Below, piece by piece: positions 40,546 through 54,780 of a DNA stretch of 64,000 nucleotides. This stretch comes from Lobosporangium transversale (lineage: Eukaryota). The position numbers and the translations under genes are program-made. A model generated the notes under the pieces. It did not search any database. It was not told where the DNA came from and was given only the letters and a program-made list of their open reading frames with translations. Every line of letters starts with the position of its first letter. The stretch's first letter is position 1. Location: positions 1 to 64,000 of the forward strand of contig NW_019028995.1 of the NCBI RefSeq assembly GCF_002105155.1, read 5' to 3'.

Positions 40546-41273
40546 CGAAGCTTTAATCTCTATTGTTCCCTCCCTGCTCCCTAATTCATTCACTTCCTTG
40601 GCCTAACAAACTATTTTGTATTCATTATCCGATGATTCGAAAAGAAGGAAAAAAAAAAAAAAAAAAATCCTCCGTTGACTCCTTTTTAGGATAATAAGGA
40701 GCTGGACGGAAAAACCCGTCATGTTTGCTTACTCAATACTCATCCAGGGCCTGTGCATTGACAAACAAGAAACGAAAAAAAGATACCAGTCTTTAAGCAG
40801 GCATGATAATATACAGAAGTCTTTCTAGAATCAAGTCCTTTTCGATAGAGAGGCTTTATATTAGGTTAACTATAGAATATCAACTATCCTTAAACCGCGC
40901 AAAACTCTTCCATTTCTTGACCTAATCACTCATAAATCTTCTATTATTGCTACTGTCGTTGCCGCTGTTATTTTTCGCGGGAGGCCTTTAGGGCGATTAT
41001 TTTGGGTTTATACGACACTGACATAAAGATCAACACCCTTTTACAGAACTGACAGTGGGTTTGGATAAATGACTAGCGTGTTACTTTCATTAACATATAA
41101 CCTCATATTATCGTAGACTGCATACTTTAAGTGATACTAGAAATATTTCAAGCGAAGCAGCACTGTTAGGTTCTTTCATTGAGCATCATTGGGCCATATC
41201 AAAAGAATCTATTATTTATAAACATTTATGAAATATATAGCAGATGTAAAACGCGTCGCGATGAACTATATGG

Positions 41274-41364
41274 TACAGCCCGTTCCATTTGGTCGCGATC
41301 CCTTATATTTTTTGAATACTCTTAAATGTATTGGCAACCAATTGACTCACTTGTTATTGCAAGT
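41274..41364 (+). repeat. Solo/left-end copy of the TA-flanked TIR element found at 47710-47895
   Basis: TA|CAGCCCGTTCCATTTGGTCGCGATCCCTTATATTTTTTGAATACT...GTATTGGCAACCAATTGACTCACTTGTT aligns by eye, in direct orientation, to 47708-47807. Confidence 0.85.
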
Positions 41365-41859
41365 GGTGTGGCTGGTCATTAAAATTAATTTCAGTTTATT
41401 TTGAATCTACTAATCTGTCGAACCAGCCTAAAGGAATCTTTGCGCAAAGCCTTTGTAGTCATAGGCGGGTCCGCCTCACCTAGAAACTACCGAGTATAAA
41501 AGCCAAAGAAACTTCCTTCTTAATAAAGTCTTCAGTTTTCCCCATATGTCTTATTCTTCACCTGCAGTTCATCTTGCCATTTATCTTTTTCCCCTTTTCA
41601 CAACAAGCATTTATCTTCCGGTAACTCAGTTTGTGAGCTCACCTATAAAGCTCCCATCTTTTCTTTTGACATTCTATGGCGCTGTTTGTAGTCAAGGTTA
41701 TTTGACTCTATTTTCTCTTGTCAATCTTGTTGACACTCTTTGTCCTGCCTTTTCCTGATTGTGTCTATCTTTCTGTCCCTTAAGCAAAGATATTTTTTAC
41801 AACAATGCCACCAAACCAATTTATTATGATTAAGATATGTGGGGTCTATATGTTGTCTA

Positions 41860-42911
41860 AATAGTCTTCCCCATAAAAAAACACCATCTAGACCAAGCAT
41901 AGAAATAAAGAGATTAGTCAAGAAAGCACTGTCAAGCTAATACTTACAACTTTTTCAAGACGAAGGCCTTTCCCGACCTAGTCATGCTTGTAGTAGCTCA
42001 TGAAAAATTTTAGACAGACAAATAGTAACCAGGGAGCAGAAGTGAGAATAGGATGTGGGTTCACACATCACATCCATGGGGCATTTATCCAAATTTGTAT
42101 CAAAATAAAACTGCAAGTTTGTCTCGGGCACCATGGGGCATAGAGCTGTTAGTATGTCTGTATTATAAATTTTCATGTAACACGTGTACTGTGAAATATG
42201 CAACTGATCATATCCTATTGTTGTTGCCGGCTTGGTGTCTTTCCTCCCAATCTATCAGTGAGCATTGGTGCAACGCATATAAGGCACACAGGCTGTTGAC
42301 GAGCCTACTTCTCACCTTCGCCGTTTGACGCAGGTCAGGGTTGTGACGGTCTAGCGAAGAAAACGTAAGGGCATTAACAATACCAGGATCGCATTAGACG
42401 GTAGTTGTGGTATTTGCAAATGAGCATCGCCCTGGCTCATGGAATATGAGTCCAACATTTCCAAGAAGTTTGGGGCCCCTCTTCCAGCTTATGTTTGCGT
42501 AGTCTTCATCTATCAGGCCATCACCGGCTGCCTTTAAAACACGCCGTGTTAAGGAATCCTTGAGAAAGTTTCAATTCCTGGCTGAGATCTTCTTCATCTA
42601 CGTCAGACTGCTGCTGTCTCTTCGTCTGGACTGTGTCATAGGCAAGTGGATTCAGAACAAGGCCATTGGTAATATCGTTCCTTTGAGTTTGAACCGAGTT
42701 ATACCTTTGTCTTGTGCCTGTAGGGGTACCTTGTCTCGATAGCCATGAAACATGCGATCTCCTTCAATGTCACAAAGAGAGCCTGTATCTAGACTTCTTT
42801 TGTTCCCTGTACACATTCAAACACTGCAGCCTTGGAAGGATTGTCGAGAGGATGTCAGTTAGGACGTGTTCAGACAGATACACATACCGAGGGGGGACGT
42901 AAGGAAGTCTG
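41860..42911 (-). pseudogene. Inverted, truncated and chimeric relic of the PIN-Fanzor family
   Basis: Minus strand of 42911-42301 aligns to copy B 51075-51738, with indels and a TAA (42394-42396) just before the RuvC-I CDPG. 42248-42213 aligns to the last codons and stop of copy A (SRQQQ*). 41996-~41860 aligns to copy A's 3' region 47277-~47447. Confidence 0.9.
41999..42177. mobile_element. Possible small MITE inserted into the relic's 3' region
   Basis: Imperfect ~30-bp inverted ends: CATGAAAAATTTTAGACAGACAAATAGTAAC (41999-42029) vs reverse complement of 42148-42177, CATGAAAATTTATAATACAGACATACTAAC. The interval is absent at the equivalent position of copy A. Confidence 0.5.
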
Positions 42912-43348
42912 TTTTATTTTTTATTTTTTATTTTTATTTTTTTATTTCTTGTTGATTGTCATGGCGAAGGCTTGATTTGGTAAATGTAGATGATCGGAGA
43001 AGAGCTGTAAACAATACTCGAAATCCAAAAAGTTAAAACTTTGTCGCTGAGAATCTTGTTTTTTAGTTTAAATGCGAGTTGTTCCAAATTCATCAGCCTT
43101 TTGTTTCGTTCTCTTTCATACACCTATAAATACGTCCTGCCTCCTTCTCTTTTCCCTCTCTCTCTCTCTCATTTTACAACGACATTGCTTTCGTGCTCTC
43201 ACCCGTACTCTTACACCCTCATCCCCTCACAGATCATAACTTTTTGCTTTCTTAAAGGTAAACTATCTCTACTCTAACAACTTCAGCTTCAATCTTTAGC
43301 CGCTTAAACCAACATTGCTTGCACTGTTTTACACTATACTTTCTCTAG

Positions 43349-44408
43349 ATGGGTATTAAAGGACTCTATTCATACCTTTCAAGGAGAGACCTGCCACCAA
43401 AGGAGATTGATGTACATGAGCTTGCTGCTGAACCCCATTCATCTTTTGAGCTGGATCTGCTTGGCACTTTCCACAGCGATATACATAATATCATCCTAAG
43501 GAGATTCAGCCGGCAGAGTTCTTTCACTGCCTGCGGCCATGCTATGGCTAGTATCATTCGAAAGATCTTTGGTCCTCTTGCCACAGTGACGATACACATT
43601 GATGGGCCTCGCTGCGAAGAAAAAACGCGCGCCTATAGGGACCGAGATGCTAAGCGTACAGCAGCGGATGCAAAACTCGATACGCTCATAGCCAACATGG
43701 AAACCAAGTCCAATGAAGGCAAATGGGAATCTCGAAGCCATATGATTGCCATTAAAAAGAATCTTCGACAGCTCTTCACATTCAGTCATAACGAGAAGAG
43801 GGAGCTCGCGGCGCCATTCGGTCGATACAATAACTTTGTGATTTGCCATTGTAGAAATGAGGCTGATGTGTGTATTGCCGCCAAATGTACACCAACCAGT
43901 ATCGCTGTGTCTGGGGACTCTGACCTTCTCATCTATCCTTCTATAAAAAGAGTTCTTCGTCCAATCCCTCGTCGCCATCACATGTTTGCACTCTATGAGA
44001 AACAAGAGGTCCTGCAAGCCCTTGGGTTTTCAAGGAACAGTCAACTCTTGGTCTATGGCATTATATCCGATTACGATTACACCCCAAATATCCCAACCTT
44101 TGGTCTTGCTACAAATGCTGAGATTATCTCTGCGCTCACTGACACTGATGCCGAAAAGTTGACGGTATCATATGTTCGTGAGGTCCATGCCCGTAGCCGT
44201 CGAACTCCTGCAGAAGGCCAGTTTGACCATTCAATTAATGTTTTCTTTGGTGGGATCCAAACCCAGACCTCGCAGCAAGCAACCGCTGAAAGATTCCTTC
44301 ATTACCATGATAGAATGAGGACTGCGATATCTGCTAGGTACCAGAATAAAAATAATCAACCTCAACCCAGGTAAGCTCCTTCAAATGAACATTTTCCAAA
44401 GCATATAC

Positions 44409-44439
<31 letters not shown>

Positions 44440-47267
44440 ATCTAACCCTTGACATTGTTGTTCCTAATTAGATTCTATATCCCTAAACGCGCAAAGCCGG
44501 ATCGCTATCGGCCTGTTTTCCCTACCCAGAAAAAGGAACTTTCCCCTAAGAAAAATGACCTGACCAACTGCAAACAACACGACCGTCCCGTCAGCTCCAG
44601 CCGTCAAAGAAAGTCCCCCAAAAAAAAGGAAAAGGAAAAAAAGAGGATGAGAAAGAAGAGGAGGTTAAGGAGGAAAAGAAGAAAAAAAAGAAGAACAAAG
44701 GGAAGGCCAAGTATATCAGAAAGACTGATGAAACCAGGAAAGTGAAGGAGGCTACTGCCGAGGACCGACGGTTGAAGAGGGCCCACCCCACTGTTGCATT
44801 AACTCTGGGCACGTTAAAGACATGTGTAGTTGCCAAGCTGGACTCTACTTCCGATCCCAATCTCAATCCCGAGCAACTTGCTGCAACAATTCAGGGGCTC
44901 ATTCAATCATTTATTAAAATGTTGAATGAGGTGCGGATTCGAGCTTTCTGGGCCTGCGCCTTGTGGATCGATAACCTGCTTACCACTGGGCCATCCAATC
45001 CAGCTGATCTCCCACAACTCCTAGATGAAGTTCTTGATAGCAGGGACTTTATTTACGGCCTTGCTGCGTTGTTGTATCACGGAGTGATGAGTCCATTATC
45101 TAGGTATAGCAGGGAAGTGAAGAAAAAAGGCGAAGGGAACGTAGCCAAGCCGTCCCAGCTCAAAGCATACGAATACTTCTATGCAAAGACAGGGCTTGGT
45201 CCTTTAAACCAGATCCTGTTCAAGCAGCGCTAAGGTCTCACTATCGGAATGCGCAGGTAAATATAATATTATAATATTTTGAGGTTATCTTATAATATGT
45301 TTATAGAAATGTTCCTAATCATTTCTTCAATATAATGTCTAGTTTGACATAGATATTCCAGGCGATGGAAGAAGTTCCATCCAATTCTTTTTTGAGCAAA
45401 ATGCAACTGCCAAAAAATATCTGGATTTCCCTACGTCTGCTTTCTCGCCTCGGTCTCTCTGCCTAACGGAAGCCAGTCTCCTGGATATATTATGGTCTAA
45501 CCCAACAGTTCGAGAGGAAATAGTCCAATTGTTGGAACTAAATATGAGTACCAAGGGGGCTGCAGAGGACAAGATCCTTAACCACAAGGGGATATTGTTG
45601 CAGGAGCTGTTTTCCTTGAAAGGATACAAGGACGTTGGACTGCAATCTGATGATGGCCCTAGAAGGAAACTACGGACATCGTTCTTTACAAACGGCCTTA
45701 CCCTAACACTTCTTGCCTATGACACATCGAAGCAAAAAAGAGGTAGAGGTTCGCAAGCTGCCCAACCTTCGGATACTCAAAGATCTCAAGCAGTCCAGGC
45801 TTCTTCAAGTGCTCAGCAGGGATCCTCGTCTTCAGGCCATGGTGCAGGCGATGGTGGTGATGATGGAGACGACGACGGAAATGAAGATGACGATATCTTG
45901 CTGGGTATCAGCGATATTGACTTGCTGGAAGTTGATGAACCATTCTTAGATGGCGACGAGGGAGAAGAAGCAGCTGAAGAAGGTACATCGAGCACAAATC
46001 CACTGTCCCCGGTGAGTCCCAGTCCCCGGCGTGAGATCAACTGGAAGCAGAGATCCCGTCTCCTCGAGAATGTAGAAGTTAAATATGACACCCAGGCAGC
46101 ATGCCCTCCCCCCGAAAGCACCATTATCATTGGGATCGATCCAGGCGAGAGGTACTCGATGACAATTGCAAAGTTGGATCCAAGGAAACCTAACGAACGT
46201 GAGATCCTCCGGAATTCTAGAGCGTGCCTTTACAAACCATCCAAGAAGTTTCAGGGCGAGCTAGAGAGGCGAAAGCTTAGAAGAGGAATTACAGAGATTG
46301 AAAGCAATATTCCGTCATTCTCAAGGCCTACTTTAACACAGTATTTCGCTTATATGAGCTTGCCGCCAAATCAAGCTCCATCAAGTACTGGAGGTAGTTT
46401 CTCTGGTAGTGGGGTTGGGGCCAGTAGTAGCAGTGGAGCAGGGACTGGTAGTAACAGTGGAGTTGAGGCCAGTAGTAGCAGTGGATCTGGGACCAGTGAC
46501 GACAATAGGGAGACTATATATAGGGCGCTTGTCGATTTCTATAATGACGGGTGGTTTGTTCGGAATAGCTGGGATAATAGAAAAGCACAGAACGGATGCG
46601 TTGATTATGTGATCAAGGCAATTCTGAAGCTTGCGGGCGGAAGCAATGGAAGAAGAAGAGATGCCAATACGAATACGATGATCTGTATTGGACTAGGATC
46701 ATTCAAGACAAACCGAGGACAAGTATCGAAGCATGGGATATTGATGAAGAAGCTTGTTGAAAAGGTAAAAAAAAATCCTTTGATCAATGACATTTAATTT
46801 TTGAGTCTTTTTTTTAACGAGTATTAAATCTGGCTCGAACAGGCAAAATCTCTAGGCTACCCCATTGCAGGTTGTCATGAATACTACACATCTGCCAAGT
46901 GTCCACGGCCTCACTGCGACAGTATATTGGAGAATGTTCCTTTTCGATCCAAGTACTGTCGAAATTGTAAAGCATACTTTGATCGAGATGCTGTTGGTGC
47001 TGAGAACATCGCAAGGGTCTGTGAGTCGCAGATAAGAGAGCAAAAACGACCTGCAAATATATGCCGCCGGACGGAGGAACTCAAGGCCAAGCTTCTAGCG
47101 GTAGTGGCGGCGGTGGAGGTAGCGGTGGCAGTGGTGGTGGTAGTAGCAGAACCACAAAAAGGAAATTTTCAGATGAAGGAGGGGGAGGAGTAGAGGGATC
47201 AAGACCACCGAAAGGACCTTTGCTGGGTCCAGAAGGGAGGGGAGAGACAAGCCGGCAACAGCAGTAG
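43349..47267 (+). CDS. PIN(XPG/FEN1-like)-Fanzor fusion, copy A; 4 coding exons, ~1,220 codons, three apparent frameshifts (possibly pseudogene)
   Basis: Exons 43349-44370, 44472-45256, 45343-46764, 46843-47267. PIN motifs MGIKGL, ELDLLG, IHIDG, EAD, SGDSD, DY-TPNIPTFG. RuvC-I IIGIDPG; ICIGLG; HEYYTSAKCPRPHC; CRNC; RuvC-III FDRDAVGAENIA. Frameshifts at ~44620-44642, ~45213 and ~47057. Confidence 0.88.
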
Positions 47268-47450
47268 GACACAATCTACTACAAACATGACTAGGTCCAG
47301 AAAGGCCTCCGTCTTAAAAAAATTGTAAGTATTGGCTTGATAATACTTTTTTTTCTTGGTTAATTTATTTATTTATTTATTTCTGTGTTCTAATACATTT
47401 CTTCTTTTTACAATAGATGGAATGTCTCGTTTTTAATGATGGACTATCCT
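47268..47450 (+). ncRNA. Candidate omega-RNA/3' region of copy A (hairpin + 3'-UTR intron 47325-47416)
   Basis: Lies immediately 3' of a Fanzor ORF and is shared with the relic (41996-41860, minus). AGGTC-CAGAAA-GGCCT hairpin at 47293-47308; GTAAGT...CTAAT...TAG intron. RNA function is inferred, not shown. Confidence 0.35.
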
Positions 47451-47709
47451 TTAAACCGTCAACCTGGCAAATTTGCCATTATAAATGGGCTTAAAATCCA
47501 GCAATTCATGGGCATTGCCTTGAAATTTTATTTTGATGTCGAAATAAATGACCGAAAACTAAACTGTCATGGAGCTATCCTGGCCTCTTTATCTGTGCCA
47601 ATAAAAAATTCTTGAAGGCTTTCGCATGACACTAGCATCCTCTTGGGGGGCCCATTGTGTTGTTTATTTATTGACTGGTGTAATAGAAGTGATAATATTC
47701 GCCATAGTA

Positions 47710-47895
47710 TAGCCCGTTTCATTTGGTCATGATACCTTATATTTTTTGAATACTTTCGAGTGTATTGGCAGCCAATTGGCTCGCTTGTTGCGAGTATTGT
47801 TGCAAGTCCGTCACGTAGTGAAATGCCACCAGAACAATTCAATCATCGTTTTTAGATTAAAAATATAAGGTATCATGACCAAATGAAATTGGCGA
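47710..47895. mobile_element. 186-bp MITE-like element with 37-bp terminal inverted repeats flanked by TA (Tc1/mariner-like)
   Basis: 47717-47746 TTTCATTTGGTCATGATACCTTATATTTTT is the exact reverse complement of 47859-47888. The outer 7 bp match 4/7. TA at 47708-47709 and 47896-47897. Confidence 0.75.
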
Positions 47896-48994
47896 TATCG
47901 ACTTGAAAGCAAGCGTTTTCCATTGGTGCCTCCAGAAGAAATAAACAAACTTTATTTTGGCGGCCACTCCACAATCATGCCATGGTTATAACAATCCCTA
48001 GGAAAGGATGAAACGTGTCGGTATTAATCTCGCTTCTGTAATTCTAAATGCATATATTTTGGCGATTGGTATCAACTATCAAGTTCGCACATACACACGC
48101 CAAACGACCGCCAAAAACCACCACTCTCGCTTCTGCTCTCCCTCCATCCACAAGGCGCTGCGCAATATCACCATTAACAAGGCACCGTCCAGTAAGAAAG
48201 GGTGCTTAGCTAGCTTTTACTCCAAGCAATAAGCACATCACCTATCTCCGCCATTGATGCTGGAACCTGAGAGCCAACGAATATCTCTGCTTTAACGCAA
48301 TAGTACTGGGTTGTTGGAGCAAAGAGCATCATATGAAGCCATTCTCTAATAAAAAAGACTTTTTTTTTCTTTAGTTGTTACCTTTGACAAGGATATAATA
48401 TCTGTCAGTGCATTTATTACCCCTGTTCAAAATTATAAATCTTCTTTTATTCATTAAATTCCTCACAAAGCACAAAACAAGAGCCAGTGCAAACAAAAGA
48501 AACTGAAAAAAAAAAAATTGTGTAACAAAGGATCGACATCGATACTGTACATATTTTTTCGAATGCTTACTTTGGTATCTCAATACTATTGTTACCAATC
48601 TGTCGTTCAAGCGAGAGCTTGTATTTATTTCTCAATCTCTGCTATTGACTGGGACAAAACCCCAATCCAAACAAAGGAACTGAATAAAGATTGATGTGGC
48701 CTGTGAAGCAAAGGATCGATATCAAAACTATATGAGACAATGATAAAACTCATCATCAATCCAGGATATAAAAAGGGATCATTGTCTTCCTCCTTCAAAG
48801 TCCCATCCCTTTTACCACTGCCACTTGTTCCTGTATCTTTCCCTCAATATTCTTTATCTATTCGCTTTGAATCTTTACACCATAAAAAAGCTCATCCTTT
48901 TATACTTTTGTCGCTCTTTTTTTTTTCTTTTTCATTTCTTTTCATCACCACCATTTTTCCTTTTTTTCTTTCTCTTTTCGCTTAGATATTGACC

Positions 48995-51900
48995 ATGGGG
49001 CTGAAGTCCTTCTTCAAACTGGTTGCGGGTCGCGGGGTTTTACCTTCGGAAACTGGCGTGGGCACTTTCTTGGCGGCAAATCCTGACCATTCTGTTCATC
49101 TAGATCTCCTAGGTACGTTCTATTACGACATCCTCCGCAGAGTCGTCCATGCAAAGATGAAAAACGAAACCATCATTGATGTAGGAAGGTCCCTGGCACT
49201 CGAGATAAAGGATCTTTTCACAACGGACAACCTGACTATACATATTGATGGGGAACCTTGTACTGAGAAAGAAAAGGCAAGGACAGAACGGCAAGCCATA
49301 AGACAAAAAAATATGAACGCTTTGGAGAACAATATGAGCACCTTCGAGAGAAATTCTCGGAGTGAGGTATGGACTCGTCCTCAAGTCATGAGGCGCATCC
49401 AGAAGGGTCTTCGAGAAGTCCACACCCTGAGCGTCCAGGACAAGGATCAGCTGGCAACAGGCCTTAGTTCTGTCTTCGATGTCTGTCTGTGTGCATATGA
49501 AGCGGACCTATGCATAGGATGCCATGATGAGGAGAATGATAGGATCGTGATATCCCAAGACTCTGATTTTTTTGCGTACGAACGAGTCTGCTTCCTAGTG
49601 CCACCCCTTCCGCACCGTAGACAGCGTTATCCAAGCACTAAGACTGCCAACACACGCGCATCTGGTGTTATTCTGTGCCATCGCAGGCAATGACTACTCA
49701 AGGAACCTCGAGACGTTAGGCCTGATTACTAATCTTCGATTAATTCGAAAGGTTGCGTGGAACGAGAAGTATAATAAAATGCTTCGGGGCTACCTAAGGG
49801 AAGCTAGTAAGGTGTTGGGAAGGAACGTAGCCTCTGAGGAAGGCCGTTTCAGTGTAGCTCTCCGCATTTTTACTTCCGGCCATCAAACGTCGGCCCAAGT
49901 GTTACCATCGAACAATGAGTTCGATAACTTCAAGCAGCGTCTACTCAATAGAAAGGATCTTCGCCATAGAATGGCTCAGCAAAGGCGAGCGCAGCGCCGC
50001 AGAACGTAAGAAAGCTCAAGCTATAGTTTTTGGCCTTGAAACCAGACGTCCCCAATACTAATCGTTAGTCCCTTTCTTGAATAATGTAGAGGCGTACCAT
50101 CATTCTATATAGCGGAAGGGTCACATAGGAACCAGTTCCGGCCCATCTTTTCTGACAAGCCGAGTATATTGAATGGGCGCACAGTTGATATCAGTAACTG
50201 CCGTCAGCACGATAGGCCGGGCCTTAGGCATCCACGTCGGAGAAAGGCAAAAAAGAAGCAACAGAAAAAACAAAAGCGGAAGCACAAAGGCAAGAAGCCC
50301 CACAGGGCTAAAAAAGAAGGTGCACCAATTAAGAACTTGAAGGATGCTACGAAGGTTGATCACAGCTACAGCAGTAAGCACCCTATCAAGGCCTTAACAA
50401 TTGGGTCCCTTAAGGCCTCCATGGCAAGGAAAGGCGGACTGGACGCAGATGAAAGGGATAGTATTGCAAGCCAGATCCGAGGGGCAGTTGTTGTCCTCAA
50501 CCGACTACGCCGCTATGCATACTGGGCGATTGCCTTGGACATTGAGAGGATCATGCGGTTACCAGGGGCAGCAAAGTCGAGGAAAAAGGCACTGGACGAG
50601 GTCTTGGATAGCAATGATTATTCCTTCCGTCTCACCACCCTTCTTTTGAGTGGTCAAGGTGGCCCCAATTCAGCTTACGCGAGGGCAAAAAAACAAGGAA
50701 AGGCGGTAGAAACGCCCCATTATCTCCTCGCTTATGAACATTTCAAGGCCACCACTGAACTTTCTCCAATAAAGGAAATAGACATCACATTGGGGGACGT
50801 CCAAGGCTTTGATCCCAAAAAGATCGCATTTCCAAGAGCGTCAGACTTACTAATGGGCCAAGTACAGACATCATTAAGGCAGCACTACAGGAACGCAATG
50901 GTATAGCTTGTGTAGGGGTATTTTCATGCATATTCTGCAATCAAATGCTCTTTATTCACACCTTTTATTTTTTTTTTTATTTTTTTTTTCTAGTTTGATG
51001 TCGAGAAAACAAACGAAGATATGAGCGACATTGAGTTTTTTTTTGCGAGAGAACAAAAAAGTGAAAAAATACTCAGACTTTCCTACGTCCCCTTGGTCAC
51101 CCGGGTATGTGTATCTGTCTGAACACGCCCTAGTTGACATCCTCTGGGCGAACGAAGATACCAAGCAGCTGCTGGAGCGTATTCTGCCTCTCAATAACCC
51201 TTCCAAGACTGCAATGTATGAGTGTGTACAGGGAACAAAAGGGGTTTTGATACAGGCTCTCTTTTGTGACATTGGAGGTGATCGCATGGTTCGTGGATAT
51301 CAAGACAAAGTATCCCTGCAGTCACAGGACAAAGATCTAACTCGGTTCAAACTCAAAGGAACGATTTCTACCAACGGTCTAGTTCTGAATCTACTTGCCT
51401 ATGACACAACCCAGACGAAGAGACAGCAGCAGTCTGACGTAGATGAAGAAGACCCCAGCCAAGAACTGGAGTTTTCTCAGGGATTTCTCAACACGACGTG
51501 TTCAAAGGCAGCCGGTGAAGACCTGACAGATGAAGACTATGCAAACATAAACTGGAAGAGGAGCTCCAAGCTGCTTGAAAACGTTGAGCTCACATTCAAC
51601 AAACCAGGGCGATGCCCATCCGCAAACACCACAACTATCGTCGGATGTGATCCTGGTATTGTTAACGCCCTTACGTTTTCCTCGCTGGACCCTCACAACC
51701 CTAACTTGCAGCAAACGGTAAAGGTGAGAAGCAGGTTCTTGTACCTCCCCGTCCTCCGCTTCAATCACCTGTTGAACAAAAGGAAGCGTGAAAAAGGAAT
51801 GATTGAGGTTGAGAGCGCCATCCCTGTGTTTGGAAGGGACACGTATAATGAGTACTTTCAATGGATGAACGGGGAGTCTCAGACACAGACAGGATCAACG

Positions 51901-52475
51901 AATTTGGATGTGCTTCAAGAGTTCTACGAATCCAGATGGCATCTGAAAAAAAAATGGGACCTACGAAAGGCTCAACGAGCTACGTTCGACTACGCAGTAC
52001 AGCGAGTGTTGAAGATGCTTGGGGATAAAGGAGTGCTTGTCGTCGGCCTAGGGTCCTTTGAAAGTAGTAAAGGAGTTCCCAGCAAGCACACTGCTATAAC
52101 GAGACACCTTGTCACACAGGTATGGCTTTTTTTTAAAAAAAAGCAAGAAAAGCTGGAAAGCCATAGAACCCTTGCTAATAAATGACTGCCATTTGAAACA
52201 CTTAGGTCAAAGCGCGAGGACACTTCGCTGTAGGAGCGCACGAATTTTACACCAGCGCCCGCTGTCCCCGAACCCTCTGTGATAGCTTTTTAGAGACGGT
52301 GTACCCTCGCTCTAAATATTGCCGGGCATGTAAGGTATTCTTCGACCGTGACGCAGTAGGGGCGGAAAACATCGCAAGAATCGGTCTTACTCAAATTGAG
52401 AGACAAGAGAGACCTGCAAAGTACAAGCCCACGGAAGAGTCGCCTGCTCCGGCTGCAAAGCGCGCACGACGCTAG
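48995..52475 (+). CDS. PIN(XPG/FEN1-like)-Fanzor fusion, copy B; 4 coding exons, ~1,070 codons, two apparent frameshifts (possibly pseudogene)
   Basis: Exons 48995-50005, 50090-50900, 50994-52119, 52206-52475. PIN motifs MGLKSF, HLDLLG, IHIDG, EAD, SQDSD, GNDY-SRNLETLG. RuvC-I IVGCDPG; LVVGLG; HEFYTSARCPRTLC; CRAC; FDRDAVGAENIA; ends PAAKRARR*. Frameshifts at ~49630 and in the T9 run 51036-51044. Confidence 0.88.
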
Positions 52476-52630
52476 ACACAAGTATTTGGGTGCCGGCACA
52501 CCCACAAAAAATTTGTAAGTTCTGTTTATTTTCGTCTCCTGTATCCATCCTCTCTAATCTTTTGCCCCCGAATTTCTGGACTAACTTTAAAAACCGTACA
52601 GATCAACAGATATTTCCATGAATAAAAAAA
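52476..52630 (+). ncRNA. Candidate omega-RNA/3' region of copy B (hairpin + 3'-UTR intron 52515-52601)
   Basis: TGGGTG-CCGGCA-CACCCA hairpin 52487-52504, then AAAAAATTT|GTAAGT...GACTAAC...CAG|AT, and AATAAA at 52621. Same layout as copy A. RNA function is inferred. Confidence 0.35.
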
Positions 52631-52738
52631 ATTATTCTAAGCCACTCCGGACCTCCTTTCCAATTTTTTTTTTTTTTTTAATGGTGACCTTTCAATCTGT
52701 CAGCCTATGCGAACTGCCATTTCTCTCATCTCGAAAAG

Positions 52739-53852
52739 ATGCACAAATACAACCGCACTACCGGACCCAAGTTCTCTGCTACAGCATTGCGTGCCAAGGC
52801 GCCAGCGACACAGCAGTGCCAAAAGTGTCTTGAATTCGGTCATTACACCTATGACTGCAAAGCTGAGAGAGTTTACAAACCACGTCCCACTAGAACTCAG
52901 CAGCTCAAGAAGCCTATCAAGAGGATTGAAGTTGAAGTCCCAGAGGAGTTTTTGCCAAAGAGGTAATATCAGAATTTCATCACATTACAAAAAGTTCTTT
53001 CCGCCAATACTAGCAGAAGGAATATATGTATTAACCATTGCACCGGCGTTCTTGGCTTGTAAATCGATCACAGGAAGGGTTTAGCTGCCAAAATCCTAGA
53101 TGACAAAGAGAGAAGGAAGAAGAATGATCACAAGTCAAGGTAAAGTATTTACCATCAATGCACGCGCGCACCCTAGTAGTTGCGCTTCTTTACTCATACG
53201 ATTTCGTCCCTTTTTTTTGTGTGTTATTCATAGATCTGAGACTTCCTCAAGCGAGAGTGATAGAAGTAGCAGTAGATCATCTTCTAGCTCGTCTAGATCT
53301 AGTTCAAGGTCTTACTCAGGCTCCTCACGCTCCTCACGCTCCTCATCAGTATCATCCTCTCAATCTCGATCATACACTCGCTCCCTATCGAGGTCCCTTT
53401 CAAGGAGCAGAAGCATAAGTAGCAATAGCGGGAGTAGAAGTAGGAGTAGGAGTAGGAGTAGGAGTAGCAGCAGGAGTAGGAGAATCAGTAGAGGTATGAG
53501 CAGAAGCCATGGAGGAATTGCAAGTCGGAGTAGGAGTCAGGACAGACATTCAAGAGCGAAGAAAAATGACTCTTACACCCCTCGTCGTAGTAAAAGCAGG
53601 AGTATCTCTCCAGACCATCCACGCGGACGCACATTACAAAGAAGCCAGAGTAGGAGCAGAAGTCGTAGCCCTAGTCGTGGGAGAGATCGAGACAGAAGCA
53701 GAGGCGGATCCCGCAGCTTCAGTCGCAGTAGGAGTCGTGGCCGTAGCCCTACTTTGACAACTAGGGAGAAGCGTACTATACAAGTTAATCATTCTTCAGA
53801 TGAGGAGAGCCAGAAGCGATCTGGAAAGAAGGTGGCATATAATAGGGACTAG
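52739..53852 (+). CDS. ZCCHC10-like zinc-knuckle protein with Ser/Arg-rich tail
   Basis: QCQKCLEFGHYTYDCKAERVYKPRPTRTQQL (CCHC knuckle), GLAAKIL exon, long RS-repeat final exon. Confidence 0.85.
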
Positions 53853-53932
53853 TGATTGGGTTTTTCCTATTTAAGAGTTTTGTTTTCTTTTACTTTTAAA
53901 CATTCAAATGTTCGATGTATGTTTTTCTGAGA

Positions 53933-54780
53933 TTAATTTGTAGGAGCCAAAGCTATGGCCTTAATTTCGATGAGAAGCTTGGGCTGGACAATCGAGTGAA
54001 ATAGATACAAGCACGTATTAATACAACTACAATTATGCGCTGCCATTCTTTTTATGAAAATGAGCAAAGTCCCACTGAAAGCAAGCAATTGTCCTTACAG
54101 AAGGTAGAGAGAGCACACCGACACACGTTCTCGAAGGACCTGCTTCTGCATCAAAATACTGGTTATAAACCTAGAGAATCCATAGACCATTGTTAGCCTT
54201 GATAGACAATTGTGGATACAGACAATAACGCAACAATAGTTTGGTTGGATTGATTGATTTTTGATTACTTGCCTCGTTCATTGCACCATAATCCTTCATA
54301 TTTGTAAGAAAGACGGTCATATCGACAATATTTTTCAGAGATGCGCCCTTCGATTGAAGAATTACATTGATGCTACAGAAAAGAGAAAAAAGGATCAGAT
54401 AAAGGCAATTGAGCCCCAAAGGAATACCATAGAGTTAATCACACTGCTTACTTTTCAATGACGGCCTTGGTTTGCGCCTTGATATCGAGTTCAAAAGTAC
54501 CATCTGCACTCTCTGTAACACCCTCATATCTAAATATCCATGCAACAATAACATAACAACCCACTCAAGTTAAAAAAAAAAAAAAAAAAAAAAAAACTTT
54601 TAAGAATTGAATTGGCCGATAATTATATGTCTCTTATTACGTATTATCGAGTCGTCGGGAGGAGATGCCGGAAACGTAGATCATGCCGTTGACGGTGCGA
54701 GCATGAGGGTAATGAGCCAAGGCCTGAGCACGGTCTTTGAGGATGACAGCCTCTCCATTAGAAGAGTTAGAAGAAGACAT
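53933..54780 (-). CDS. RidA/YjgF/YER057c-family deaminase, 5 exons
   Basis: Spliced translation MSSSN...AQALAHYPHARTVNGMIYVSGISSRR...QTKAVIENI...VDMTVFLTNMKDYGAMNEVYNQYF...GPSRTCVGV...LLIEIKAIA; stop 53933-53935. Confidence 0.9.

Follow-up and report, generated by a model that had tools for sequence, protein, structure and literature searches.

An apparent intron behind the stop codon and before the element end of two FEN1-like/Fanzor1 fusion elements in Lobosporangium transversale, and the possibility of a guide RNA assembled by splicing

Introduction

The closest described relative of the system treated here is SpuFz1, a Fanzor1 protein whose omega-RNA has a 75-nucleotide (nt) scaffold running from after the stop codon through a 30-nt repeat, with the guide in the 14-15 nt beyond (PMC10432273; statements given with a PMC number refer to excerpts of that source). 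The omega-RNAs of Fz1 proteins are 75-150 nt long and have a conserved first stem followed by an unconstrained region (PMC11423790). In this work, we describe two genes, A and B, in a 64,000-nt stretch of fungal DNA from Lobosporangium transversale (assembly GCF_002105155.1, contig NW_019028995.1, positions 1 to 64,000 of the forward strand; hereafter, the window), in which the host genes are ordinary and intron-bearing. Each of them codes for a fusion of a FEN1-like nuclease with a Fanzor1 protein, and in both the region where an omega-RNA should lie contains a hairpin followed by the signals of a spliceosomal intron.

Introns are known in Fanzor genes (PMC10530073). Unclassified Mucor elements were reported by Bao and Jurka, and the feature described below does not appear in the excerpts of their paper (PMC3627910); a term search of a 2026 review found nothing about spliceosomes or FEN1 in it (PMC13565253). 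Two further systems bring together splicing and noncoding RNA ends. IStrons, which combine IS605/IS607 elements with a group I intron and with TnpB, are spanned over their whole length by the self-splicing intron, with the 3' splice site at the element end, and their splicing destroys the guide (PMC10690162). In fungal telomerase RNA, the spliceosome carries out the first step only, close to the 3' end of this noncoding RNA, at unusual splice signals and together with an Sm site (PMC4299874).

Two FEN1-like/Fanzor1 fusion genes

The two genes have the following coordinates:

43349-47267, plus strand: gene A, FEN1/EXO1-like nuclease and Fanzor1 (RuvC and TNB); exons 43349-44370, 44472-45256, 45343-46764 and 46843-47267; broken copy
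48998-52475, plus strand: gene B, a second FEN1-like and Fanzor1 fusion; exons 48998-50005, 50090-50900, 50994-52119 and 52206-52475; broken copy

Each gene has four exons and three coding introns at corresponding positions, and the two proteins are 33-63% identical when compared exon by exon. The reading frame of A is damaged near 44557, 45215 and 47054 and that of B near 49622 and 51036. Other copies of the elements were viewed through four public runs mapped to the region (X1, X3, X5 and X6, four of the eight runs on the list), and these copies are longer at 45215 and 49622 and shorter by one base at 51036. Because all four runs have one more A behind 47054, it is the window copy of A that is frameshifted; its stop codon, TAG at 47265-47267, is reached only when the gene is read in the frame of the other copies. 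An apparent intron in the 5' untranslated region (UTR) of A occupies 43258-43348, its acceptor abutting the start codon, and in B a T-tract resembling an acceptor, followed by TAG, immediately precedes the start codon.

The TNB zinc finger (PF07282) scored above the cut-off in the last exons of both genes, with four conserved cysteines. A profile built from 130 relatives matched FEN1 in its front part (E 2e-14) and SpuFz1 in its rear part (E 3.3e-13). For fold comparison, the relative P0006 stood in for the broken copies of the window; a single-sequence fold gave a predicted local distance difference test score (pLDDT) of only 36. The P0006 model (pLDDT 84.7) placed SpuFz1 at ranks 1-3 (E 2.2e-11), matched GtFz1 and PpFz1 as well, and then FEN1 and EXO1, in keeping with a FEN1/EXO1/XPG-type head (E 1.2e-9). 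The D, E and D residues of RuvC are present in 70 of 79, 45 of 50 and 43 of 49 rows having a residue there, and also in the translations of A and B. SpuFz1 (PDB 8gkh and 9cey) is the best match to the C-terminal part in both sequence and fold and, like A and B, has no transposase inside. The N-terminal 340 amino acids (aa) of the family match the FEN1/EXO1/XPG group of 5' nucleases, whose FEN1-type acidic residues are conserved across the relatives; unlike those nucleases, this head is fused to a Fanzor protein in a mobile element.

A and B are FEN1-like/Fanzor1 fusions, and Fanzor1 by every feature that could be tested, which supports the assignment to the TnpB/Fanzor type made in the first-pass annotation. 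RNA-guided DNA cutting by proteins of this kind is predicted purely from family membership. All named relatives of the two proteins come from Mortierellaceae, and the family comprises 832 representatives at E up to 0.001, counted with one relative as the query and including partial and single-domain matches. The combination of a FEN1/EXO1-like head with Fanzor1 forms a large family across Mortierellaceae, within whose elements no transposase was seen. The family locus was not found in scans of metagenomes (three weak bacterial loci), prokaryote genomes (none or one weak match) and viral contigs (none).

The layout behind the stop codon

Behind the stop codons of A and B, and in a relic copy on the opposite strand, the following features were recognised:

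47276-47324, plus strand: post-stop block of A with ACAA motif, hairpin (47293-47308) and A-tract, predicted to form the scaffold's 5' half in the omega-RNA; similarity to the relic begins at 47276
47325-47416, plus strand: 3'-UTR intron of A, U2-type, 92 nt (GTAAGT, CTAAT, TAG); from sequence signals, an RNA contig end and a drop in RNA depth
52476-52514, plus strand: post-stop block of B with ACAA motif, hairpin (52487-52504) and A-tract; from sequence comparison and folding
52515-52601, plus strand: predicted intron of B, 87 nt (GTAAGT, CTAAC, CAG); from sequence signals, RNA depth inside it being equal to exon depth
41861-41996, minus strand: A-type end of the relic, with hairpin block 41996-41948, 60-nt intron 41947-41888 and terminal exon 41887-41861 ending in GACTAT
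42301-42955, minus strand: B-type coding fragment of the relic, 85% identical to B and joined to the A-type end; itself multi-copy

In A, the hairpin AGGTC-CAGAAA-GGCCT is followed by A7T2 and by the intron, whose CTAAT lies 23 nt from its 3' end and whose TAG precedes AT. In B, the hairpin TGGGTG-CCGGCA-CACCCA is followed by A6T3 and by an intron with CTAAC 17 nt from its end, in a near-optimal branch site (GACTAAC), and with CAG before AT. The hairpins with their 6-nt loops and the splice signals had been marked at these same positions in the first-pass annotation, and all of them held on rechecking. The statement that A and B cannot otherwise be aligned behind the stop codon proved too strong, as they share, together with the relic, an ACAA(A/G)(C/T)AT block upstream of the hairpin, and 13 of 14 bases across the post-stop donor are identical between A and B. 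This likeness persists in saturated DNA, for the two genes agree at 33 of 132 four-fold degenerate sites, which is the chance level.

The signals are more frequent than shuffled sequence would provide. The pattern AAAAWWTTGTAAGT, allowing at most one mismatch, occurs three times in the 64 kb, precisely at the A, B and relic sites (0.30 expected; 0 of 100 shuffles), although it was taken from the sites themselves and serves as a rough guide only. A donor at up to 100 nt combined with a branch motif and YAG turned up in 60 of 12754 genomic windows; when the post-stop DNA was shuffled, the same combination appeared in 5 of 5000 sequences for A and in 2 of 5000 for B. The ACAA block together with the donor was matched in 2 of 2000 shuffles, compared with 84 of 2000 for the exon part by itself. 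Taken by themselves, the hairpins are weak and lack significance (z -1.1 to -1.9; 12-45 of 300 shuffles equally stable); five of their pairs are retained between A and B, two through double changes, which is anecdotal in a comparison of two sequences.

All three 3'-UTR donors read GTAAGT, as against none of the 12 other introns examined. The 3'-UTR introns measure 60-92 nt, compared with 78-115 nt for those 12, and the branch lies 17-26 nt from the acceptor, compared with 24-28 nt in coding introns; the GT donor, branch and YAG are always present. A diverged B-type DNA contig skips 52524-52569 and resumes at 52570, ahead of the branch site, retaining the donor and the branch region, and the relic intron is 32 nt shorter than that of A, yet donor, branch motif and acceptor are all kept. 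We conclude that the post-stop layout of hairpin and intron is real and conserved.

As to the identity of the intron, two candidates were tried and rejected. An IStron does not fit, there being no Rfam match in 41500-53000 at E up to 1, an intron too short for a group I ribozyme, and two splice sites internal to the element. Nor does a telomerase-type intron, as a non-canonical donor, a long branch distance and an upstream Sm site are all missing.

The relic had been put forward as a further instance of the same layout. The layout is indeed found there, with an end 81% identical to that of A over 99 nt; the relic is not a third independent case, because an A-type end is fused to a B-type coding fragment, and about 200 extra nt separate its stop from its hairpin. 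In this chimera, other DNA of about 200 nt separates the B-type coding fragment from the A-type end. The relic lies head to head with A at a similar DNA depth and is possibly a ghost element, or else a composite element's left arm, with a guide gene at either end of the composite. The idea that the relic end is the left repeat of A draws on the similar copy depth and on one short-sided joint, 41915-44985.

Element ends and copies

The right ends of the elements give three further features:

47417-47447, plus strand: terminal exon of A within the element, 31 nt (32-34 nt in other copies), ending in GACTAT and similar to a terminal inverted repeat; predicted 3' half of the scaffold; from loose ends at 47426 and 47434 and the relic end at 41861
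47448-47462, plus strand: flank of A, predicted guide segment, with its length taken by analogy from SpuFz1; from five differing flanks and PMC10432273
52602-52612, plus strand: shortest terminal exon of B inside the repeat, the repeat end lying at about 52612 to 52643; from single-copy contigs of X1 and X3 that both begin at 52583

In X3, the single contigs of A and B have depths of 114 and 163, against the yardstick of 7-11 given by unique flank contigs, and both elements are multi-copy; summed depths were never taken as copy numbers. The whole of 41270-52612 (11.3 kb) is multi-copy. Beyond GACTAT there are five different flanks, those of the window, the relic and all three loose-end rows that are long enough (3 of 3, from X3 DNA and X5 RNA), and since they diverge at this point, the A-type right end is placed at 47447. 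Contigs overlap at repeat borders by 30 letters, a value that is inferred, and the left unique contig of B overlaps the repeat by 27-28. The intron lies within the final 140-180 nt of the element, the end of which follows the acceptor by 31-34 nt in A, as the flanks strongly imply, and is bracketed at 11-42 nt past it in B. The claim that the intron sits where the omega-RNA should lie is borne out by these loose ends and flanks, as they place it after the stop codon and ahead of the element end.

A repeat of another kind lies to the right of A:

47709-47897, no strand assigned: miniature inverted-repeat transposable element (MITE) with 39-nt inverted repeats and TA on either side; a truncated copy starts at 41275 (41275-41364)

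Compared by eye, the terminal 15 nt of this MITE match the A-type right end, read on the opposite strand, at 12 of 15 positions, as do those of the copy at 41275. Owing to this resemblance, the terminal exon of A looks like a transposon end, and it suggests that the high-copy MITE and the A-type elements share a transposase acting in trans. A perfect 12-nt palindrome at 47466-47477 forms the left boundary of another repeat, which begins 19 nt past the end of A (loose end 47466). In addition, deleted derivatives join the spacer from 47974 to the body of B, and from these the left arm of B may be about 1 kb long. No inverted copy of the end of B was found.

RNA from the locus

The RNA data come from one run of one study (X5) and consist of assembled contigs, without strand and without small RNA. 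That X5 is an RNA run is seen from host introns, joined at a depth of 696 compared with 0 in the three DNA runs. The main A-type contig of X5 is 519 letters long and has a depth of 241.5; 485 of its letters align to 46841-47324, beginning at the last coding acceptor and halting at the base that precedes the donor. The remaining 34 letters equal the length from the acceptor to GACTAT in the rows with the loose end 47434 (18 + 16), where the flanks branch. RNA depth at the start of the A intron is about 26 (at most 76), compared with 267 at 47309. As the start of the intron is conserved between A and the relic and unmasked until 47347, an unspliced contig would be expected to continue past the donor. 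Taken together, these observations make it probable that the intron of A is spliced. In B, the first coding intron (50006-50089) is joined in RNA.

Other transcripts were observed around B. An antisense-spliced joint, 51822^51964 (intron 51823-51963, minus strand), has a depth of 199.7 in X5 and is absent from the DNA runs, which points to RNA from the opposite strand across B-type sequence; it might reflect silencing, or transcription that reads through from a host promoter. About 100-130 nt beyond the end of B, a highly expressed host gene (52738-54640) encodes a zinc-knuckle, serine/arginine-rich protein, and its 3' part overlaps an opposite-strand spliced gene within one RNA contig.

A proposed guide RNA assembled by splicing

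In our main reading, to which we assign a probability of roughly 0.5, complete splicing of the 3' UTR would join the hairpin to the terminal repeat and a flank-derived guide, and so build the omega-RNA scaffold. Its starting point is observed: a Fanzor1-type protein, elements in many copies, and a layout kept across saturated DNA. Both splicing steps would then take place, which is indirectly supported in A and predicted in B, and the read-through RNA would be trimmed to the hairpin module, the terminal exon and about 15 nt of flank. The predicted spliced scaffold measures 80-83 nt in A when counted from 47276 (88-91 nt from the stop) and 50-80 nt in B, whereas the unspliced scaffold would have 136-182 nt with a U-rich middle; the proximity of the spliced size to the 75 nt of SpuFz1 favours assembly by complete splicing. 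As expected from knowledge of the family, the protein would bind the spliced RNA and cut empty target sites, and processing of the cut ends may fall to the FEN1-like head. The candidate guides have no other match in the window at up to two mismatches, save one A/T-rich chance match. Assembly is the best fit of the three roles first offered for the intron (guide assembly, spliceosomal 3'-end cleavage and regulation of the mRNA), with the change that the intron would split the scaffold itself and not part the scaffold from the guide.

A stricter form of this proposal, which we advance tentatively and at slightly less than even odds, is that of a split guide-RNA gene, in which the scaffold hairpin has to be spliced to the terminal repeat and guide by the spliceosome of the host, and the nuclease is armed only by the spliced RNA. 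If this is true, arming would be confined to nuclei able to recognise the intron, and the DNA constraints on the element end would be uncoupled from the RNA constraints on the guide.

Like A and B, SpuFz1 with its Spu-1 and ghost elements has a noncoding stretch from the stop codon to a terminal repeat of about 30 nt, a variable flank and noncoding end copies (PMC10432273). In contrast, SpuFz1 is a single open reading frame of about 630 aa with a continuous scaffold, while the A and B proteins have about 1000-1300 aa and carry a FEN1-like head, their genes contain coding introns, and a further intron lies within the predicted scaffold; a matching left repeat was not found for them. The omega-RNAs of PpFz1 (Parasitella) and GtFz1 also begin with a small stem-loop, followed by a variable region and the guide; their first stem has 7 bp, compared with 5-6 bp and possible extensions in A and B, and splicing is not described for them in the excerpts of PMC11423790.

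Several observations weigh against assembly by splicing. The joints 47324^47417 and 52514^52602, by which the first-pass annotation had proposed to recognise spliced RNA, do not occur among the joint rows listed (15 of 59 and 15 of 35), and the 34 letters at the end of the A contig are themselves unread. Nor are there loose ends at 47324 or 52514 among the rows listed (24 of 463 and 12 of 176). The missing A joint is uninformative, since the coding intron 50901-50993, which contains the same kind of masked T-run, has no joint row listed either, though a contig stops at 50900. What the RNA offers on these sites is a contig that stops at the donor in A, and in B an intron depth equal to that of the exon: in B-type RNA the intron is kept, with a depth of about 35-40 within it and 37.6 in the exon, but the last coding intron stays in this RNA too (piece 52137-52487), and antisense RNA covers B-type sequence as well. 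Relic-type RNA (41784-42451, depth 16.8) reads through its intron without splicing, and intron sequence is probably also part of the RNA contigs whose loose ends lie at 47426 and 47434. Spliced folds are hardly better than unspliced ones (z -0.3 in A, -1.2 in the relic and -1.7 in B, compared with 0.0, -0.7 and +0.6), and the predicted pairings of the terminal exon are not alike in A and the relic. Moreover, the DNA 3' of the end of A is itself multi-copy (DNA contig 47602-47645 at depth 88.8, compared with 7-11 for single copy), and relic-type RNA extends 77 nt beyond its GACTAT, so that the ends of some copies lie within larger repeated units. Finally, a left repeat, a target duplication and an empty site were not found for A or B.

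Alternative explanations

The strongest competitor, though an unlikely one, is an ordinary inherited 3'-UTR intron that serves to express or export the mRNA or to form its 3' end, the guide RNA being indifferent to the intron or confined to one side. Both genes are intron-rich, with three matching coding introns, and Fanzor genes attain a host-like intron density (PMC10530073); the region past the first stem is unconstrained in known omega-RNAs (PMC11423790), the spliced folds are unremarkable, and AATAAA follows downstream at 47543 in A and 52621 in B. This account leaves unexplained the conserved A-tract and TT on the exon side, the perfect donor, and the unchanging position of the intron between the hairpin and the end of the element despite saturation. 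Besides, 3'-UTR introns turn over fast and are poorly conserved in Cryptococcus (PMC5006051).

Less probable again is an IStron-like switch, in which the unspliced RNA would be the guide, a basal stem stabilised by the protein would block splicing, and splicing would give an mRNA with an inactive scaffold. In the unspliced folds of A, the relic and B, ACAA pairs with UUGU straddling the donor, and such a stem would account for the conserved bases on either side of it; yet this stem has little stability (z about -1.4) and, being invariant, offers no covariation. The intron retained in B-type and relic RNA agrees with a switch, whereas most A-type RNA appears spliced, and the unspliced scaffold would be as long as given above, with a middle that is full of indels. 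Bacterial IStrons (PMC10690162) provide a precedent, as in them, too, the omega-RNA region of the right end is overlapped by an intron, which lets splicing and guide function influence each other. Unlike theirs, the intron of A, B and the relic is of U2 type, has 60-92 nt and lies within the element end, and its splicing would join parts and leave the guide attached to the hairpin.

It is improbable that the intron marks the mRNA for exon-junction-dependent nonsense-mediated decay and in this way limits a toxic nuclease. This had been offered as an alternative at the outset, and it fits one gene of the two: the junction of A lies 57 nt past the stop codon, exceeding the 50-nt rule of a route that Neurospora uses (PMC6173133), but that of B lies at 39 nt, under the rule. 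A-type RNA is also well represented in X5, and the hairpin and A-tract would stay unexplained.

Least probable is the suggestion that, as in fungal telomerase RNA, first-step cleavage by the spliceosome frees the 5' exon as a mature RNA end: a strong donor does stand directly after a structured block, and the branch site of B is near-optimal, but the known cases use either a GUCAGU or AUA(A/C)GU donor or else a strong branch at a long distance, below an Sm site (PMC4299874), whereas here the donor is canonical, the branch distance is no longer than in coding introns, the tract upstream of the donor is A-rich with no Sm-like U tract, the A contig runs 34 letters beyond the donor, and the product would have no guide.

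Significance

Among the matches listed, no publication was found on a spliced Fanzor guide, a Fanzor in Mortierella or a FEN1-Fanzor fusion; subscription papers and the locus supplements of PMC10432273 and PMC10530073 lay outside the scope of the search. An intron within the predicted omega-RNA of two distantly related Fanzor1 elements is likely a new observation, and a guide RNA built by splicing would likely be a new production route.

How the guide RNAs of Fanzor proteins arise in their native nucleus is an open question. According to excerpts of the literature, these RNAs have mostly been mapped in yeast or in cell-free systems, where a host-specific intron could stay unspliced. If the scaffold is spliced, predictions made from genomic DNA would yield the wrong scaffold, and the family would have a eukaryote-specific guide biogenesis that is the mirror image of IStrons. 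The FEN1-like head of the family, in turn, is a natural counterpart of nuclease fusions.

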